The notes beneath the pieces are model-generated. The model was not told where the DNA came from, did not search any database, and saw only the letters and a list, made by a program, of their open reading frames with translations. From Candidatus Woesearchaeota archaeon (GTDB lineage: Archaea > Nanobdellota > Nanobdellia > Pacearchaeales > UBA284), in the NCBI GenBank assembly GCA_964354405.1, contig CAYGZP010000001.1, positions 272,879-336,133 on the forward strand: DNA of 63,255 bases, given 5' to 3'. Below, in pieces: positions 1,680 through 45,529 of the stretch; within the stretch, counting starts at the first letter, position 1; each line of letters starts with the position of its first letter. The position numbers and the translations under genes were made by a program.

Positions 1680-2906
1680 ATGAAATTCGCTCATCTCGCA
1701 GACTGTCATCTTGGCGCATGGCGCTCTCAAGAGTTGCAACAGCTCAGCCTGGCAGCTTTCGATATCGCAATATCGCGATGCATTGAAGAGAAAGTTGATT
1801 TTGTGATAATTGCAGGAGATTTGTTTGATGTTGCCATGCCCGGCGTTGATGTATTGAAAGAAACAGTCTCAATCATAAAAAAATTGAAAGAAAACAACAT
1901 CAAATGTTTCTTGCTTGCGGGCTCGCATGATTTTTCAATCAGTGGCAAAACATTTCTCGATGTTCTTGAGCGAGCAGATTTATTCAAAAACGTTTTTGTG
2001 ATGAATCAAAGGGAAGATGAAAAGGAACTGGAGATTTTTCATGATAAAGAGCTAAGAGTGAGTTTTGCAGGAATCCCCGGCAAAAAAGCAGGCATCGAAG
2101 TGAACTTGTTCAAGAATCTTAAAGTTAAAAAAACTGAGCAGATGGATGAAAATTCATTAAAGATATTTATTTTTCACACAACATTGACAGAGTCCAAGCC
2201 AGAGGAAATGTCTTTCGTAGATTCAATAGACTTGACACAATTGCCAGATGGTTTTGATTACTATGCCGGCGGCCATCTCCATCTTGTAGCTAAGCACAAG
2301 AAAGGCAATGCCTTTGTGACTTATCCTGGCCCGCTCTTTCCAAACAACTTTGAAGAGCTCGAGAAACTTGGGCATGGAAGGTTTTTCATTGTTGAAATAG
2401 ATGAAAAGACAAAAGAGACTAAAATAAAAGATGAAGAAATAAAGATTAAGGATACAATAATCATCAACTCTGATGTGGATTCGTTGAATCCGAATGCTGC
2501 CACAGAAAAAATTCTTTTAGATATATCAAAACAGAATATAAAAGATAAAATTGTGCTGCTCAAGTTATCAGGAACCCTAACTTCTGGCCGAACCTCTGAT
2601 ATCAACTTTGAAAAGATAAGGGAAAAGCTGCATGAGAGTTACTCTTATCTAAAAAGCACTTCTGGCCTGAGCACAAAAGAGTTTAAGATTGATATAGAAA
2701 ACAAGGGCGATGACATTGAGACTATTGAAAGGAATATTATCATAGAATATAATAAGAAAGAACAGGAATTCAAAGAATTCTTGCCGCTCATCTCCCAGCT
2801 CAATGCGATATTGGACACAGAGAAGTATGAAGGTGAGACAAAAGAGAAGTATGAAACTCGTGTTCTTGGAGAATTTAAAAAAATAGCAGGAGAGTTAGAG
2901 GAATAG
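1680..2906 (+). CDS. mre11: DNA double-strand break repair nuclease Mre11/SbcD
   Basis: Metallophosphoesterase motifs ADCHLG, AGDLFD, GSHD and GGHLH; adjacent to rad50. Confidence 0.9.
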   Translation: MKFAHLADCHLGAWRSQELQQLSLAAFDIAISRCIEEKVDFVIIAGDLFDVAMPGVDVLKETVSIIKKLKENNIKCFLLAGSHDFSISGKTFLDVLERADLFKNVFVMNQREDEKELEIFHDKELRVSFAGIPGKKAGIEVNLFKNLKVKKTEQMDENSLKIFIFHTTLTESKPEEMSFVDSIDLTQLPDGFDYYAGGHLHLVAKHKKGNAFVTYPGPLFPNNFEELEKLGHGRFFIVEIDEKTKETKIKDEEIKIKDTIIINSDVDSLNPNAATEKILLDISKQNIKDKIVLLKLSGTLTSGRTSDINFEKIREKLHESYSYLKSTSGLSTKEFKIDIENKGDDIETIERNIIIEYNKKEQEFKEFLPLISQLNAILDTEKYEGETKEKYETRVLGEFKKIAGELEE

Positions 2907-2915
2907 GAAAATAAA

Positions 2916-4973
2916 ATGAGAATAAGGAAAATATCGCTGAACAACATAAGATCTTACGAGAAGCAGGAAATTAATTTTCCAAATGGCAGCGTTCTCTTGT
3001 CAGGAGACATCGGCTCTGGAAAAAGTACAATCCTCTTGGCTTTAGAATTTGCCTTGTTCGGCCTGCAAACAGGATATTTATCTGGCGCAAGTCTCTTGAG
3101 GGGCAATGCAGAGCAGGGCTCAGTTGACATCGAGCTCGAGATAGAAGGAAAACCCATCAAGATAAAAAGGACTTTGAAAAGAAATAAAAAATCCGTGACT
3201 CAGGACAGGGGTTTCTTTACTTTAGAAAGCAATCAAGAGGAGCTCGGAGCAGAAGAATTGAAACAGAGGGTTTTAGATTTATTTGGCTATCCACTATCAC
3301 TCATAAAAGCCCGAACCAATCTGCTTTACAGATTTACAGTTTACACTCCACAAGAAGAGATGAAGCAGATTCTGCAAGAAAATGCCGATGACAGAATAGA
3401 TGTTCTGAGAAAGATATTTGGCATTGACAAATACAAGAAAATTGCCGAGAACGCCGAGCTTATTGCAGCGAGGCTCAGAGAAGAATCTCGTTTCAAGGAA
3501 AGCCAGATTCTAGACTTGCCGTCATTGCTGAGACAGAAACAAGAAAAAGAACAAGAGTTAAGTGGCGAGAACTCGAAACTTCAGAAGATTTTTCCCCGAT
3601 ACAATCAAATAACTGAAGATATGAAAAAAGCCGAGGGCGAGTCAGACAAAATTTCGCTGCAGATAATCAGAGTCAATGAATTAAAACCCCAGTTCGCTGC
3701 GCTTGTCTCAGAATTAAGGTCAAAAGAGAAAGAGATGCAAGGAATCAAGGAACAAATCGCCGACAATGAAAAACAGATAAAAGAATTGGAATCTAAACTC
3801 GGCATAAAAGTTCTTGTCCCCGAGAACTTTGCAGAAAAAATAAAGAAAAAAATGCAGGAGCAAAAGGATCTGCTCGAACATTCCAAGAGTGCTGAAGCAA
3901 GGATAATTGCATTAGAATCGAAGAAGCAGGATATTCTCGCCACAAAAAGCAAAATTGAAAGTCTGGACGAGTGTCCCACATGTCAACAGCCCGTTCCTTT
4001 AGAGCACAAACACAGAATCTCGGAAGAAAATAACAAGAAGCTTTATGAAATTGAGTCAAATTTCTTGACTTTAGAAAAGAACTGCAAGGAATTCTCAGCC
4101 AATCTCGAAATAATTGAAAAAGACGTGGAAATGTTAAGACAAGAAGAGAAAAACTATGAAAAAAACAAAATAATTATAGAATCTTTGAACGAGAGAAAGA
4201 ATTATCTGGAAAAATTGAAGAGAAAAACCGAGAATGTTATCACAGAGACAGTTGAAATCAAGAATCAGAAAGAAAAAATAGAGCATGAACTCTCTGCACT
4301 GAAAAATATTGATGCTATTGCTCTGGGGATCAAGCAAAAACTGGAGAGCTTGAGAAAAAAAGAGCGCGAGGCTGAGATAGAGAAGGTTAAGCACGAAAGA
4401 AACATTGAAAACACAAGCAAAATATTGAAGATTTTGCAGGGAGATATTGAAAAAAAAGAAAATATCGCCCGAGACATAGACAAACTAAAAAAATTGAATG
4501 AATGGCTCCTCAAACATTTCATGATAATCATCTTGACGATTGAAAAGACAGTCATGGCTAAGTTAAATCACGAGTTTAATCTATTATTCGAAAAATGGTT
4601 TAGCATTCTTGTGGAAAGTTTAAACGCGCGCATCGATGAAAACTTTACTCCAGTAATCGAGCAGCAAGGTTATGAGATTAATTATGAGGCTTTGTCAGGC
4701 GGCGAGAGAACAGCCGCGGCTTTAGCATACCGCCTTGCATTAAACCAGATAATCAATCATTTCATGGGCAAGCTTAAAACCAAAGGTTTGCTTATACTTG
4801 ACGAACCAACTGATGGCTTCAGTTCAGAACAATTGGATAAAATGAAAGATATCCTGAACGAGTTGGAATTTGAACAGCTTATCCTTGTTTCGCATGAGTC
4901 AGAAGTAGAGGACTTTGTAGAAAATGTGATAAATTTTGAAAAAAAAGAAGGAATCACTAAAATTCTTGGGTGA
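2916..4973 (+). CDS. rad50: DNA repair ATPase Rad50/SbcC
   Basis: Walker A GDIGSGKST, coiled coils, central CPTC zinc hook, LSGGE signature, LDEPT Walker B. Confidence 0.9.
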   Translation: MRIRKISLNNIRSYEKQEINFPNGSVLLSGDIGSGKSTILLALEFALFGLQTGYLSGASLLRGNAEQGSVDIELEIEGKPIKIKRTLKRNKKSVTQDRGFFTLESNQEELGAEELKQRVLDLFGYPLSLIKARTNLLYRFTVYTPQEEMKQILQENADDRIDVLRKIFGIDKYKKIAENAELIAARLREESRFKESQILDLPSLLRQKQEKEQELSGENSKLQKIFPRYNQITEDMKKAEGESDKISLQIIRVNELKPQFAALVSELRSKEKEMQGIKEQIADNEKQIKELESKLGIKVLVPENFAEKIKKKMQEQKDLLEHSKSAEARIIALESKKQDILATKSKIESLDECPTCQQPVPLEHKHRISEENNKKLYEIESNFLTLEKNCKEFSANLEIIEKDVEMLRQEEKNYEKNKIIIESLNERKNYLEKLKRKTENVITETVEIKNQKEKIEHELSALKNIDAIALGIKQKLESLRKKEREAEIEKVKHERNIENTSKILKILQGDIEKKENIARDIDKLKKLNEWLLKHFMIIILTIEKTVMAKLNHEFNLLFEKWFSILVESLNARIDENFTPVIEQQGYEINYEALSGGERTAAALAYRLALNQIINHFMGKLKTKGLLILDEPTDGFSSEQLDKMKDILNELEFEQLILVSHESEVEDFVENVINFEKKEGITKILG

Positions 4974-36550: not shown

Positions 36551-38965
36551 ATGAGAAAGGTATTTTTGATTTTTTTATCGTTATTGTTCTTAATGGCTAT
36601 TGCGACACAGGCAACATTTGCCAGGGCCGAGTTTACAGTTACAACTCACATGGAGACCAACACTGTATGCCCAAGCACTACTATAGTTATAGAAGATGTA
36701 GTCACAGCCTCTTCTCCTGGCGCGATAACAATCACTTCCGCAGGCTCTGCTGCTAATTTTGCGACAGTTATTCCTTACGGATTTTGGCTCGAGCCAGGCC
36801 AGAGCGAAGTTGTTTATTCTTATATAACTCCATCATCTAAAGTCACCCCAGGAACTTATGTTCTTGAAGTTGTTATAGCTCAAGGCATTTTTGTGAAAAC
36901 AGTCAAGCATACTGTTATAGTTGAAAATTGCCATAATACAGTTATCAAGGTTGAGCCAGCTTCTCAATCAATATGCGCTTGCGAGCAAAAGAGTTTCTTA
37001 TTGACTGTTTCAAACTTAGGAAGATACATGGAGAATTATGAGTTGAGCATTGAAGGCCCCGCGTCCAAGTGGATTGAATTATCTTCAAAATCTATAACTC
37101 TAGCTGCAGGTTCAAGCGCAAAGATAACAGTAAATGTCAACACTCCTTGCAATGCCGCAGGGAATTATGATACTAATTTTGTAGTCAAATCAAAATCAGA
37201 ATATGCTCAGGCAAATGTCAAAGCCGCATTATCAATTGTCTCTTGTTATGATTATACTATATCTAGCGACAAGACATATTACAGCATCTGCGAGGCAGAG
37301 AAATTAACCGCACCAATAAAAATAAAGAATTTAGGAACAAACAATAATATTTACAAAATAAACTTACAGGCTCCTAACTGGACTCATCTTGATTTAAATC
37401 AAGTTACAATTGAGAAAGGCAAGGAAGCCACTTTCAACTTGATTGCAGAGCCTCCTTACAAGACACAAGGGAACTTTACAGCATACATCGAAGTGATGAG
37501 CGACTTCGGAAAAGTTATCAAGAAACATGATATCTCATTGCAAGTTTCAAAATGTTATGATGCTTCTGTAACAATCGAGACAGACAAAGACAAGATGTGC
37601 AATGCATTGAGCAACACATACTCTGTCGCTATAAGAAACACAGGAAAATTCCAGAACACCTATGATATTGTTATTGAAGGGCCAGACTGGGTTACAATAA
37701 GTGAGAAGAGAGTTACTCTTAACGCGTCAAAAGAAAAATCACTTGTGTTAGATGTTCACCCTCCTTACAACACAAAGCCAGGAGAATATAAAATAAAAGT
37801 CAAGGCAATAGATGCTATAAGCAAAACAGAGGCTTCTGACACATTGACTGTAACAACAGTCTCATTAGAGGAATGCTACAGCCCCGCAATAAGCACTAAA
37901 GATGACATCGTTGCTGTATCCAAGGACAACACCGCAACAGCATTATTCATAATCGAGAATAAAGGAACTCACGATGCAAACTACACTATCGAAGTAAGTG
38001 GAACAGCGACAAAATTCTCACAGGTTCACCCTGGAACAATTGCATTGAAATCGACAAAAGCGCAGACAGTTTACTTGTATTTAGCTCCTCCTTTGGAGAT
38101 TGCAGCCCAGGATTATGTCATAACAATAACAGTAAGATTAGAAGACACAACAATCCTGGCGAGCAAGACAATAACAGTGAAGGTTTTAGAAGCAGGAGCA
38201 TTGCCACAGCAGCCACAGCCACAACCTCCAGCAGTCAAGCCAGCTGAACAATCATTATTCTCAAAGATATTTTCATGGTTCTTGAATTTGTTCAAAGCAA
38301 AACCCGCAACTAATGAAACAAAGACAAATGTCACAAATGTTACAAAAACAAACCAAACAAAAGTTAACGAGACAAAGACAAACGCAACAAATCAAACACA
38401 ACCAGTACCGCCAGTAAAAAACATCGCGCCAGTCTTGAGTAAAAAGATTCCAGATATATCAGTTCAATCAGGCAAGAAACAAACAATTGATTTATTAGAT
38501 TACTTTGATGATCCAAACGCTGATATTTTGACTTTTGTTACTGTCAAGCCGCAGAACATGACAGTTAATATTATAGGAAGCATCGCGACTCTTGAAGCAC
38601 AGCAAGGTTTCACAGGAACTCGCGAAATTTCATTCTACGCGAGCGATGGTTATGATATCACACAGAGCAACACATTAAAGATAACAGTTACAGCAGCTGC
38701 GCAAGGAACAACCCCAACAACAAACAAAACAAATGTTACAAAGACAAACGCGACAAACGCAAGCTGTGGAAATGAGTCATGCACTCCAGCGACAACTCCC
38801 ACAAAGATTGACTGGCAAAAATTTCTGCCTTGGATAATTGTAGCTGTAATAGCAATACTGATTATTGTCATAATCACCACAGGCCTGGGCAAGAAGATTG
38901 TTGATTTCTTCGAAGAAGATGTAAGCAACGGCAATGGCAGAAAGAATAATAATCACAAGAAATAA
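36551..38965 (+). CDS. Large cell-surface protein with repeated Ig-like domains and Thr/Asn-rich linkers
   Basis: Signal peptide; repeated (I/V).N.G....Y.(I/L) units; many N-x-T sequons; C-terminal TM. Confidence 0.75.
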   Translation: MRKVFLIFLSLLFLMAIATQATFARAEFTVTTHMETNTVCPSTTIVIEDVVTASSPGAITITSAGSAANFATVIPYGFWLEPGQSEVVYSYITPSSKVTPGTYVLEVVIAQGIFVKTVKHTVIVENCHNTVIKVEPASQSICACEQKSFLLTVSNLGRYMENYELSIEGPASKWIELSSKSITLAAGSSAKITVNVNTPCNAAGNYDTNFVVKSKSEYAQANVKAALSIVSCYDYTISSDKTYYSICEAEKLTAPIKIKNLGTNNNIYKINLQAPNWTHLDLNQVTIEKGKEATFNLIAEPPYKTQGNFTAYIEVMSDFGKVIKKHDISLQVSKCYDASVTIETDKDKMCNALSNTYSVAIRNTGKFQNTYDIVIEGPDWVTISEKRVTLNASKEKSLVLDVHPPYNTKPGEYKIKVKAIDAISKTEASDTLTVTTVSLEECYSPAISTKDDIVAVSKDNTATALFIIENKGTHDANYTIEVSGTATKFSQVHPGTIALKSTKAQTVYLYLAPPLEIAAQDYVITITVRLEDTTILASKTITVKVLEAGALPQQPQPQPPAVKPAEQSLFSKIFSWFLNLFKAKPATNETKTNVTNVTKTNQTKVNETKTNATNQTQPVPPVKNIAPVLSKKIPDISVQSGKKQTIDLLDYFDDPNADILTFVTVKPQNMTVNIIGSIATLEAQQGFTGTREISFYASDGYDITQSNTLKITVTAAAQGTTPTTNKTNVTKTNATNASCGNESCTPATTPTKIDWQKFLPWIIVAVIAILIIVIITTGLGKKIVDFFEEDVSNGNGRKNNNHKK

Positions 38966-39518: not shown

Positions 39519-42437
39519 TTAAACTTTTAAGGTGAGAATCTTGCTGATTCCTTCTTGCATGCTTGTTCCATACAACCTGTCTGCATTGTTGATTATAGCG
39601 TCGTTGTGCGATATGATGATGCATTGAGAACCTTTGACATTGCCCCTCAAGATAGTTGCAAGAATCTCGCTGTTCCTCCTGTCTAACGCAGGATCGATTT
39701 CATCGAAGATATAAAAACAATAAGGCTTGTATTTCTGTATCGCGAACATGAGCGCGAGAGCCACAATAACTTTTTCTCCTCCTGACAACGCATCCGCGCT
39801 TCTCTCCTTGCCCCTGGCAATCTTGATAATGATGTCCATGCCTCCTGCAAAAGGATCTTGTTTGTTCTCAAGCTCCAAGAAAGCTCTGCCTTTGTTGCTT
39901 AGCGAGACAAAATTGTCGCTGAATGACGAGTTTACAGCATTGAACGCCTGCATGAAAGCTTGTTTCTTTTTCTTGTCAACCTCTGCGATTATTTTTAATA
40001 TCTCTCCTTTCTCCTCCTCAATCTTAGCAGCTTTCTGCGCTATTTCATCATACTCTGCCTTAATCTTGTCATAAACCTCTAATGCTCGCAGATTGACAGA
40101 GCCCAGTGTTTGCAGAATCTCTTCATGTTTTTTTAATCTTATCTCAAGCTCATCAATTCTCATTGAAACAATCTCATTCTCTACAACATTATACTCCTTA
40201 AACTCCGCGTCCAAAGAACTTGTTTCAGCTTCTAATCTAGCTTTATCGATTTTCAGATCGTTAAATTGCATCTCATTGATGCTTCTGCTTGTTTGCTGTT
40301 CATTTATGGAAGTCTCGTTCTGGTGTATTAAATCCTGCAATTTCTGTTTCTTGTCTATGCTGTTCTTGAATTTCTTTTCAATCTCCGAGGAGTCTCGCTC
40401 TTTTATCAGAAGCTCTTTCTGCTTTACAGTTAAATTTTTCATGAATTCTTTCAACTCAAACTCTAGCTCGAGCTTCTCCTGCCTTGCTCTTTTGATAATC
40501 AGATTACTGTTCTCTATCTCCCGCTTTTTTACAGTCATCTCAACATTATAATCATGCTCCTCATAAATCGGCATGTTTAACTTTATTTTCATCAATGTCT
40601 CTTGTAGTTTCTCAAGCTTAGCTTTCTCTTTGCTGTAGCTTTCGTCAATGAATTCAGGACTTTTCAGAGTTTCCTTCAATTCTTTAATCTCTTCATTTAA
40701 TCTTGAAAGGTTTACAATTATATTCTCCTGATCAATCCTTAATTTTTCTTGTTCTGTCTCTTTAATCTTTATATTATGAGTTATTTCAAGAGCTTCATGA
40801 TACTTTCTCTCTTGCTCCACGAATTTAGCAATTTGTTCCGCGATGTTCTTTGCTTCTTTTTTTATTGCAACTTGGCTTTTCTCTCTTTCTTTCTTGTCTT
40901 TCTCAAACAATCCAACAGCTTCTTTCAATTCTTTCATCAGAGCTTCTTTATACTCTTTAGTCAATGCCTGTTTGCACTTAGGGCATTTATTCAACTCGAG
41001 CACTGCTGAGATGTCTTTCTCATGAATTTCTTTTTTAGTGAGAATTCCAAAAATATCTTTCTCTATCTTATGGATCTCTTCCTTAATATCATCGAGCTTC
41101 TTTTCATGCGCGCTCTTGCCCTGCCTTATCTCCTCGATATTTGCCTTGGAGCTTGTTTTAATCAATGTTTTTATCTCTTCCTTGATTTCAAAGAGCTTCT
41201 TGTCGATTTCTTTCAACTTTACATTGTTTTCGCTTAGCTGGAAATCTTTCTTTGAAATCTCTAATTTTGTGAGATTGTAATTTTCCCTTTCAGCCTCAAT
41301 CTCGCTCATCTTTTGTTTTATCTCTTTAATCTCATTATTGATTTCTTCAGCCCTCTTGGAATCTTTCTTCACTTCTTCCTTGTCATAGCTTTGAGATTGC
41401 CTCTCTAAAGCGCTTAAATCCTCATAAAGTGTTTTCAATTGCTCTTTGATGTGCTCGCTTCTTTTCTCCAAGTTGACTATCTTGTCATTAGTGTTCTCTT
41501 TCTTTACATTCAGGCTCGCGAGCTCTGTTTTAAGCTCAAGAATAACCCCGCGCAGCTTGTCCTGCTCAATTCCAGTCTCATTTTGCATCTCTTGCTCTAT
41601 TTTTTTTATCAAGTCTATAGCCTCGCTAATCTTGCTTTTGAATTCCTGCTCTTTCAATCTTAATTTTTCGATTATCTTTGTCCTTTCCCCTATCTCCTCA
41701 TCGACTTTGCCAAGAGCTTTCTTCTTTTCCTTTATCTTCTGCCATATGATAGAAGCTTTTTCAACCCCGACACTTTTCTTCAAATTCTGATATTTCAATG
41801 CCTGAGCTCTCTCGCTCTCCAAGTTTTTTAAATAAGAACTCCTTTCATTCAATATTGTCTTGACTTCTTTCAGCCTTTCATCAGTTTTTTCAAGTTCATG
41901 CAAGGATTTTTCCTTCCTTTCCTCATAAATGCTTATCCCCGCAGCTTCCTCAATAATCTTTCTTTTGTCTTCAGAATGCATCGCTATAATGCTGCTTATC
42001 TCTGCCTGTAAGATTATGTTAAAACCTTCAGCATCAATTCCTGCCTGTGACAGCAATTCAAGCATCTCTTGTCTTGTCTTTGTATCATCATTTATCTTAT
42101 AAACACTTGTTCCATCTCTTCTTACAATCCTTGATATAGCTACTTCCTGAGCAGGCAGCGCGAAAACCCTGTCAGCATTGTCGAAAACCATGCTCACTTT
42201 GGCATTTTGAGCTGGCTTATATTCCTTGCCCCCATCATAGATAAAATTAGCAGCCTTGGTTGCTCTCATAGTCCTTACTTTCAAGCGCCCCAGAACAAAA
42301 CATATTGCATCAGCCAAGTTGCTTTTGCCCGCCCCATTAGGCCCGACAATGACATTCATGCCCCTGTCAAAAACAATATCAGTTGGCCTGGCAAATGACT
42401 TAAAACCATGTAAATGCAATTTCTTGATATAAACCAT
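39519..42437 (-). CDS. smc: Smc-family chromosome segregation ATPase with central CxxC and no recognisable hinge
   Basis: GFKSF, GPNGAGKSN, NIILQ, GSVNLRALE, LSGGEK and FYIFDEIDPALD heads; CPKC at residue 485 of 972. Confidence 0.85.
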   Translation of the reverse strand: MVYIKKLHLHGFKSFARPTDIVFDRGMNVIVGPNGAGKSNLADAICFVLGRLKVRTMRATKAANFIYDGGKEYKPAQNAKVSMVFDNADRVFALPAQEVAISRIVRRDGTSVYKINDDTKTRQEMLELLSQAGIDAEGFNIILQAEISSIIAMHSEDKRKIIEEAAGISIYEERKEKSLHELEKTDERLKEVKTILNERSSYLKNLESERAQALKYQNLKKSVGVEKASIIWQKIKEKKKALGKVDEEIGERTKIIEKLRLKEQEFKSKISEAIDLIKKIEQEMQNETGIEQDKLRGVILELKTELASLNVKKENTNDKIVNLEKRSEHIKEQLKTLYEDLSALERQSQSYDKEEVKKDSKRAEEINNEIKEIKQKMSEIEAERENYNLTKLEISKKDFQLSENNVKLKEIDKKLFEIKEEIKTLIKTSSKANIEEIRQGKSAHEKKLDDIKEEIHKIEKDIFGILTKKEIHEKDISAVLELNKCPKCKQALTKEYKEALMKELKEAVGLFEKDKKEREKSQVAIKKEAKNIAEQIAKFVEQERKYHEALEITHNIKIKETEQEKLRIDQENIIVNLSRLNEEIKELKETLKSPEFIDESYSKEKAKLEKLQETLMKIKLNMPIYEEHDYNVEMTVKKREIENSNLIIKRARQEKLELEFELKEFMKNLTVKQKELLIKERDSSEIEKKFKNSIDKKQKLQDLIHQNETSINEQQTSRSINEMQFNDLKIDKARLEAETSSLDAEFKEYNVVENEIVSMRIDELEIRLKKHEEILQTLGSVNLRALEVYDKIKAEYDEIAQKAAKIEEEKGEILKIIAEVDKKKKQAFMQAFNAVNSSFSDNFVSLSNKGRAFLELENKQDPFAGGMDIIIKIARGKERSADALSGGEKVIVALALMFAIQKYKPYCFYIFDEIDPALDRRNSEILATILRGNVKGSQCIIISHNDAIINNADRLYGTSMQEGISKILTLKV

Positions 42438-44503: not shown

Positions 44504-45529
44504 ATGGTAGACGAAGAAACATTAATCAGACTAGTGCATAGTGCTAAAGAATTGAAAATCTTGAAAGCAATCACTCAGATAACCAAATCAAGTGATAATC
44601 TAGATGTTATCATAAGCAAGGTTATAGGCTTGATTCTGAATGAAATAGATGTCAAGATAGTCTTCTTTGTTGTTGAAGAGAACGGGCAGCTAGTTATAAA
44701 GAATACAGATGAAAATCGCCCATTAAATTCAACATTCCAGGAGCTTATCCACTTTATAGCACAGGACACAATAAAATATTCTTCTCCAGTACTTGTAAAA
44801 CAGACTAGAAAAGGAACTATAGCTGATAAATTTGGAATAAAGAGTTTCTTGAGCGTTCCTTTGATGCTTCATGAAGGTCCTGTGGGCTCGATCATACTTA
44901 TGGCCCAATACAGAAGTTTCTCTCAGGCTACATCAAAGATATTGAGCACAATTGCTAACCAGACAGCTTCTGCTGTCGAACATCTATGGTTAAAGAAAGC
45001 CATAGACGAAAAAGAAAAGAAAATCACAAAACTTTACACAAAGCTCTATACAAAAGAGACAAAGAGAGCATTAACAGATGCCTTGACAGGATTATTCAAC
45101 AAAAGATATTTCCTAGAATTGATAAACTCAAAAGTCAAATCAGGCAAAGCAATCAACTTGATAATGGTTGACTTGGATTTTTTCAAGCATTACAACGACA
45201 CTTTCGGCCACGTCGAAGGTGATGTCTTATTGAAAAATCTTGGTAAACTTGTCCAGAAGATTAAGAATGTAAAGGCAAGCAGATATGGCGGAGAGGAATT
45301 CGCGATTATAGCTGAAAGCGATGTCAATGAAGCTATAACAATTGCCGAAGACTTAAGACACGAAGTCGAGAAACTTTATCCAAAGAAATCCAAAAGGCCA
45401 GTAACAGCTTCATTAGGAGTTGGACAAAGAAAGAGAGGAGAAAGCGTAGATGAATTTATAAAGAGAATTGATGCAGCTTTATACAAAGCAAAAGAATCAG
45501 GAAGAAACCAGGTTCAAATCGCTAATTAA
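44504..45529 (+). CDS. GAF-GGDEF sensor diguanylate cyclase
   Basis: GAF (SFLSVPL); DALTGLFNKR, DLDFFKHYNDTFGHVEGD, RYGGEEF and ALYKAKESGRN. Confidence 0.9.
   Translation: MVDEETLIRLVHSAKELKILKAITQITKSSDNLDVIISKVIGLILNEIDVKIVFFVVEENGQLVIKNTDENRPLNSTFQELIHFIAQDTIKYSSPVLVKQTRKGTIADKFGIKSFLSVPLMLHEGPVGSIILMAQYRSFSQATSKILSTIANQTASAVEHLWLKKAIDEKEKKITKLYTKLYTKETKRALTDALTGLFNKRYFLELINSKVKSGKAINLIMVDLDFFKHYNDTFGHVEGDVLLKNLGKLVQKIKNVKASRYGGEEFAIIAESDVNEAITIAEDLRHEVEKLYPKKSKRPVTASLGVGQRKRGESVDEFIKRIDAALYKAKESGRNQVQIAN

Follow-up and report, generated by a model that had tools for sequence, protein, structure and literature searches.

A hingeless archaeal Smc with a Rad50-like distal arm and a predicted zinc hook

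The 63,255-nucleotide (nt) stretch of DNA analyzed here, hereafter the window (contig CAYGZP010000001.1 of the Candidatus Woesearchaeota archaeon assembly GCA_964354405.1, positions 272,879 to 336,133), encodes a 972-amino-acid (aa) protein, hook-Smc, that is an Smc orthologue and, for want of a hinge, not a canonical hinge Smc. We regard it as very probable that this protein, the sole Smc of its genome, is the orthologue of the Smc of Smc-ScpAB condensin, that its distal arm and hinge were replaced in the ancestor of its order by the arm and hook of the lineage's own Rad50, and that it forms a predicted dimer around a Cys4-bound zinc. We take the order to be Pacearchaeales and its sister group to be Woesearchaeales; source records label the close homologs Candidatus Pacearchaeota. 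A hinge counts among the defining parts of an SMC protein, and three roles have been proposed for it: DNA gate, DNA-binding site, and a means of getting past other SMC complexes. The gene and its parts are listed below, with graft borders that carry an uncertainty of ~20 residues and are weaker on the N side before residue 430.

39519..42437, minus strand: smc gene, 972 aa, without a hinge and with CxxC at the apex (open reading frame (ORF), profile scores, motifs, AlphaFold2 model)
41838..42437, minus strand: Smc N-terminal head and neck, residues 1-200, with Walker A GPNGAGKSN and Q-loop Q144 (motifs and alignment; sister hinge-bearing Smc at offset 0, windows scanned from residue 161 on)
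41373..41837, minus strand: Smc-derived proximal arm, N strand, residues 201-355, up to the helix break predicted at 349-357 (sister Smc at offset 0, windows 201-360; model)
40563..41372, minus strand: Rad50-like graft (distal arm, hook, distal arm), residues ~356-625 (diagonal -132/-134 to the order's Rad50; sister Smc unmatched)
40974..40985, minus strand: CPKC zinc-hook motif, residues 485-488, with C485 and C488 (motif scan, homolog alignment, hidden Markov model (HMM))
40113..40562, minus strand: Smc-derived proximal arm, C strand, residues 626-775, from the break predicted at 620-629 (sister Smc at offset +190, windows 641-760; model)
39522..40112, minus strand: Smc C-terminal neck and head, residues 776-972, with signature LSGGE, Walker B/D-loop FDEIDPALD, and switch H944 (conserved residues)

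A preliminary description of this DNA had recognized a 972-aa protein of Smc type, and its motifs all lie where it placed them on the minus-strand ORF, starting at residues 11 (GFKSF), 32 (GPNGAGKSN), 779 (GSVNLRALE), 884 (LSGGEK), and 912 (DEIDPALD). Read on the plus strand, the same coordinates give a closed frame. The split ABC ATPase head is of the Smc type, with Walker A, Q-loop, signature, Walker B, D-loop, and switch all present, and L884-G887, D912, E913, L918, D919, H944, and N945 were invariant across 90 aligned homologs. C485, P486, and C488 were invariant as well, in rows that were chosen as hook-bearing. Pfam matched SMC_N (E 4e-52) and did not detect SMC_hinge (PF06470) in the protein even at E ≤ 1. 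The hinge domain was also unmatched anywhere in the 98%-complete, 834 kb genome by a genome-wide profile search, and an alpha/beta hinge was absent from the AlphaFold2 monomer model, so the absence of a hinge noted earlier held by all three routes; for the 90 homologs, the same statement rests on precomputed Pfam lists and the genome survey described below. The model, built on those hook-bearing homologs (mean predicted local distance difference test 80, predicted template modelling score 0.41), shows a long antiparallel coiled-coil arm with helix breaks at 349-357 and 620-629. Its apex consists of a helix (434-481), a short hairpin (strand residues 484 and 491), and a second helix (494-590). 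CPKC stands at half of the protein's length, and the earlier placement of a CxxC at the coiled-coil midpoint (C485) was borne out by motif scan, model, and homologs. Foldseek matches to the whole models were dominated by heads and coiled coils and were uninformative for the apex.

We mapped the graft by sliding 40-residue profile windows of hook-Smc along nine sister hinge-bearing Smc and 31 Rad50 of the order. Windows 161-360 chose sister Smc at offset 0, and windows 641-820, except 741-780, chose sister Smc at +189/+190. Between them, windows 441-620 all chose the order's Rad50 at -132 and windows 361-420 did so at -134, and no window of segment 361-640 gave a consistent sister Smc match. 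Each border coincides with one of the predicted helix breaks and lies about 130-140 residues from the cysteines. The preliminary description had proposed that the hinge was replaced by a Rad50 hook; the replacement stands, and its extent is larger than described, at about 260 residues of arm plus hook rather than the hook alone. Judged from these alignments, the simplest history would be a single recombination that exchanged about 455 Smc residues for about 265 Rad50 residues. An exchange between the two facing coiled-coil breaks (~355 and ~625) would leave the antiparallel arm symmetric. Base composition did not indicate a recent insertion (GC 0.34 vs 0.36-0.43).

The heads point to Smc ancestry. 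In the NCBIfam ranking the protein scored 490 bits to archaeal Smc (TIGR02169), 117 to Rad50, and 86 to ASRP (NF045487, cut-off 300), and a PDB sequence search placed archaeal Smc first (E 3e-158) and Rad50 far behind (E 7e-15). We built two quick trees with Shimodaira-Hasegawa-like approximate likelihood-ratio test (SH-aLRT) values only and without bootstrap. The head-plus-proximal-arm tree (65 rows, with 10 of the 20 Smc rows of family f2 left out) recovered the order's 31 Smc as one group (SH-aLRT 100) among the hinge-bearing Smc of the class, nearest to a hinge-bearing clade of 10 rows, a placement that is not firm (83). In the head-only tree (46 rows, leaving out two haloarchaeal Rad50 and one Rad50 of the order), the order's 14 Smc (100) joined six hinge-bearing Smc (97), and 12 Rad50 stood apart from the Smc heads (100). 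Its single ASRP/Sph row had a branch length of 8.9 and an uninformative placement, so separation from ASRP rests mainly on the profile scores. Both trees thus support hook-Smc heads nesting among hinge-bearing Smc and not Rad50, in line with the Smc-type heads of the first reading of the sequence.

The architecture extends across the order. Among the best 120 of 7637 homologs, a hinge domain was listed in none and CxxC lay at 42-58% of the length in 94; two further homologs have a CxxC displaced by an intein, which brings the apical CxxC total to 96/120. Of 301 genomes across the class, 214 had a hinge match, 0/62 from the order itself and 214/239 from other orders. The 25 hinge-negative genomes of other orders comprise 19 with no Smc match, three with fragments at contig ends, and three with weak matches only. 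We also fetched 40 smc genes of the order, a hand-chosen and non-random set, of which 33 carried the hook and seven had neither hinge nor hook. The sampled genomes are related, so all these counts describe one lineage and not independent events. The homologs carry a plain SMC label in standard annotation, and their genes would escape a survey that starts from hinge alignments. The class survey also turned up several departures from the usual gene. Some smc frames reach ~1650-1720 aa through large in-frame insertions, and two Smc (P0025 and P0097) have intein and LAGLIDADG Pfam domains (PF14890, PF14528) positioned before the hook. No Smc match was obtained in family f25 (14 genomes) or in f11, f51, and f76, with three of these genomes being single-contig; in f25, Rad50 was likewise not found by the query used (4/4 genomes). 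One hinge-bearing Smc of 938 aa (L078, G300:C4) has an arm about 100 residues per strand shorter, with a head-to-head span of 574 vs 741-798 in 10 other hinge Smc.

Intact ATPase motifs and the retention of ScpA and ScpB make a condensin role the most likely one, with hook-Smc probably acting as the hook-dimerized condensin of the cell. A search for a kleisin partner found full-length ScpA and ScpB encoded on contig C5 of the same genome. The smc gene is single copy, and a search for a co-resident pair of hook and hookless paralogs found none. Within the order, an Smc head was found in 199/201 genomes, ScpA in 99/101, ScpB in 60/61, and a separate Rad50 in 40/41. In Rad50, two CxxC motifs are reported to bind one zinc (PMC6969161, 10.1101/2020.06.24.160820), and zinc hooks are described as stable dimer modules (PMC6969161). 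From this analogy we infer zinc binding, a hook dimer, a kleisin ring, and loop extrusion for hook-Smc. In the dimer, one Zn2+ would be coordinated by C485 and C488 of both monomers, and the hook-joined pair would alternate between a rod and a ring. ScpA, with ScpB attached, would link neck to head, and head engagement powered by ATP would open the arms and extrude DNA loops, much as in an ordinary prokaryotic condensin.

A protein of Smc ancestry might instead have taken up a changed job, in repair or end sensing with Mre11 or in mixed hook dimers with Rad50. We judge this improbable. The genome's Mre11-Rad50 pair lies elsewhere in the window:

2916..4973, plus strand: rad50, 685 aa, a paralog whose ancestor is the likely donor, with the matching part at residues ~227-490 (nt ~3594-4385) and CPTC at residue 353
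1680..2906, plus strand: mre11, directly upstream of rad50 and unlinked to smc

This Rad50 carries the hook IESLDECPTCQQPVPLEHK that the preliminary description quoted, and the close likeness of the Smc hook to it makes cross-pairing chemically possible. The smc gene also adjoins neither scpA nor scpB: neither occurred near smc in any of 40 smc loci of the order (0/40, flanks of about 1-3 kb), and this lack of linkage counts against a condensin role. On the other side, mre11 was likewise absent from all 40 loci, ScpA and ScpB are kept almost throughout the order, this genome has no other Smc, a dedicated Rad50 adjoins mre11, and the heads and proximal arms are Smc-type. The class's Rad50 (window 2916-4973; L119-L189) are short, at about 650-700 aa, and most adjoin mre11; their scores to the ASRP profile (95 bits) are about equal to those for several Rad50 profiles.

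As for the source of the graft, a likely donor is the Rad50 of the lineage itself or of its sister, and the sequences do not allow a narrower assignment; we infer an intragenomic origin. An HMM of the Smc hook found the genome's own Rad50 as its best non-Smc match (E 7e-8; next 0.0018), in keeping with the likeness of the two hooks noted at the outset. The flanking arm agrees. Leaving out the hook core, we ranked the hook-anchored diagonal for segments 430-472, 500-560, and 561-620. It came 1/642, 1/624, and 1/625 against the 31 Rad50 of the order and also first against 17 sister-clade Rad50, but 329, 6, and 16 against 16 Rad50 from more distant families. In a tree of the centres, those of Smc fell together with Rad50 from the order and the sister clade (99), separate from 11 of the 12 distant Rad50.

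The alternative of a foreign donor, in which the hook came by horizontal transfer from an ASRP, coalescin, or Sph gene or from a distant Rad50, is very unlikely. Most ASRPs are described as having a zinc hook (PMC9389158), the centre tree is poorly resolved, and the trees had one ASRP only. However, an ASRP profile match above cut-off was found in 0/151 genomes of the phylum, and the flanking-arm diagonal is specific to Rad50 of the order and sister clade. Median scores to the Smc-hook HMM were also higher for these Rad50, at 33.9 bits in the sister clade (n=19) and 31.5 in the order (n=31), than for other families, at 23.0 (n=16).

Of similarly low probability is a plain deletion of the hinge followed by a convergent CxxC turn, with the likeness to Rad50 reflecting coiled-coil periodicity. 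Per-column similarity of the arm is low, heptad phase is fixed relative to any apex, and a hookless helical apex is present in relatives. A plain deletion, though, predicts a sister Smc match for 361-640, and none was seen. In-phase controls shifted by multiples of 7 scored well below the anchored diagonal around the hook, and the rank test of that diagonal with the hook core excluded largely refutes convergence. The hook consensus (K.KLD.CPLCK.KIT.EH in Smc vs KIS.L..CPTCKQ.V..EHK in Rad50) shares seven non-cysteine positions with Rad50, at -6, -3, +7, +10, +11, +15, and +23.

Several observations pull against a Rad50-derived graft in an Smc orthologue. The 490-bit score lies below the TIGR02169 cut-off of 729, which is expected because the hinge is missing. 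Rad50_zn_hook (PF04423) matched residues 473-506 only below cut-off (E 0.014; 15.6 bits vs 24.3). Windows 401-460 matched neither Smc nor Rad50, windows 361-420 need the 2-residue shift, and the arm resembles Rad50 weakly in each column (mean BLOSUM 0.2-0.5). Long branches are numerous in the centre tree, which divides the Smc centres into two groups and is without power to separate the order's Rad50 from the sister clade's; a single clade of Smc centres is compatible with the approximately unbiased (AU) test (p-AU 0.51). Searched alone against the PDB, the centre (residues 441-540) gave no significant match (best E 0.26) and no solved Rad50 hook. Finally, 24 of the best 120 homologs, about 800 aa long and without CxxC, have neither hinge nor hook, and some members of the order evidently do without a hook.

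We reject an assembly chimera of smc and rad50, which the preliminary description had raised as a misassembled centre: public contigs on smc are short with none spanning it, and its junctions were unbridged at 31 bases on both sides in the pieces shown (three DNA runs of one study, with small shares; no RNA run was listed), but the architecture recurs across many independent assemblies (the 96 homologs, down to about 40% identity, and 33 of the 40 fetched genes), the centre is far diverged from the genome's own rad50 (no phmmer match at E ≤ 1e-3), and an independent 151-base contig bridges the CxxC with two differences, making this reading next to impossible.

Among known systems, one of the closest to hook-Smc is the Smc of Smc-ScpAB condensin (TIGR02169; Pyrococcus PDB 5XEI, 5XNS, 4I99). 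The two agree in the neck, the proximal arm, and a split ABC head that has all catalytic motifs; hook-Smc is single copy with ScpA and ScpB in the genome, and its heads are nested among hinge-bearing Smc of the class. It differs in being hingeless and about 190 residues shorter than sister Smc, with a Rad50-like distal arm and apex. It shares the apical CxxC hook and a homologous distal arm with Rad50/SbcC, whereas its heads are not those of Rad50 and no mre11 is linked to it. Like coalescin ClsN and Sph, it is an archaeal SMC-superfamily ATPase with a hook in place of a hinge; those ASRPs are described as a separate hook-bearing family (PMC9389158), whereas hook-Smc is the Smc orthologue itself. 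Marine Actinobacteria are reported to have a hinge-less SMC without CxxC (PMC12153180), which likewise has SMC heads but is bacterial and parallels the hookless ~800-aa form rather than the hook form. One precedent is engineered. Burmann 2017 reports normal growth of B. subtilis when the Smc hinge is replaced by the P. furiosus hook (PMC5344682), and Tatebe 2020 describes the reverse swap (PMC6969161). That Smc(Zh) construct also has Smc heads and an arm capped by a Rad50 zinc hook; hook-Smc, in contrast, is natural, order-wide, and old, with about 130 residues of Rad50 arm per strand and its own Rad50 as the likely donor.

Searches of the open literature, which does not take in subscription journals, found no natural hook-bearing Smc, although such proteins may stand uncommented in the sequence tables of the surveys; as far as we found, the hook-for-hinge swap was previously known in print only as a laboratory construct. 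The main text of a survey of archaeal SMC proteins lists DPANN Smc as canonical and does not bring up Pacearchaeota or a missing hinge (10.1101/2021.05.15.444277). The engineered chimera, which already supports growth, tempers the surprise and partly answers the question of whether a hinge is needed, for which the preliminary description had seen relevance. For specialists the natural swap remains striking and testable, although engineering had already proved its feasibility. A later preprint suggests that SMC-SMC traversal is the reason for keeping the hinge (10.1101/2020.12.04.411900). On this model, as on the hinge-gate model, a hingeless Smc should show specific defects, and an order living without a hinge, together with its hookless relatives, supplies evolved test proteins for both. 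Hook-Smc further offers an instance of Smc-Rad50 domain exchange that can be mapped.

The ~800-aa Smc with neither hinge nor CxxC form a second apex type in the order (L040:3042-5438 of genome G320, L041, L043, L044, L046, L057, and L058; proteins such as P0032-P0036). Their apex is a ~90-residue helical hairpin, and in a model of one of them the hairpin (helices 359-403 and 407-443) lies between the same two breaks as in the hook form. Hairpins from three families are homologous to one another (E 1e-6 and 3e-5), and strong matches occurred in 9/401 genomes of the order, each time inside an Smc frame of ~807-908 aa. The source of the hairpin was not found, as it was unmatched to the hook arm, Rad50, and sister Smc. 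We set aside 13 weak matches (E 3e-6 to 9e-5) in short frames, most with an internal stop; the two loci that were read are non-Smc.

In the same-genus genome G320, the hookless gene sits between the same five neighbors as the hook gene here. Trees of heads and arms conflict, with arms sorting largely by apex type and heads not, and a hookless clade was rejected on heads (p-AU 2e-51). Four sets of head sisters with unlike apices have heads 73-85% identical and proximal arms 24-45% identical; three pairs with like apices have heads 74-82% and arms 59-70% identical. The window's own smc (arm region 40113-41837), compared with L040 and P0032/P0033, has heads 79-85% and proximal arms 25-32% identical, with sharp steps in identity near residues 200 and 775. 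Given near-identical heads with divergent arms, whole arms (about residues 200-775) appear to have been exchanged as blocks. Synteny and single copy fit allelic exchange; lost paralogs with head gene conversion may be an alternative. We lean slightly towards the arm and apex of Smc being an exchangeable cassette, with a long hook arm and a hookless arm about 80-87 residues per strand shorter persisting at one locus after the graft and swapped repeatedly onto near-identical heads. If so, native condensin would work with three unrelated apices, one perhaps without a known dimerization module.

Where anchors matched, head-to-head spans were 587-609 in 28 hook genes and 435-436 in three hookless genes, and the hookless arm is about 76-87 residues per strand shorter than the hook arm. 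The functional period of Smc arms is reported as 91 (PMC5344682), and the nearness of this step to one superhelical period is suggestive only. No literature support was found for identifying the junction breaks with the 'elbow'.

The neighbors of smc in the window are unrelated genes, comprising an RsmB/F methyltransferase, a zinc-ribbon protein, and Ig-fold surface proteins. The most conserved of these across the order is an 804-aa Ig-fold surface protein gene (window 36551-38965), found near smc in 18/40 loci. By sequence reading, at L001:269-1063 and 1113-1982 (G000:C5), scpA lies tail-to-tail with a MinD/ParA-family ATPase gene, and scpB lies about 4 kb from scpA, downstream of an aRF1-like gene. 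The window also contains an ORF (44504-45529) for a GAF-GGDEF, diguanylate cyclase-like protein, judged by its GGEEF motif, which to our knowledge is unusual for an archaeon.

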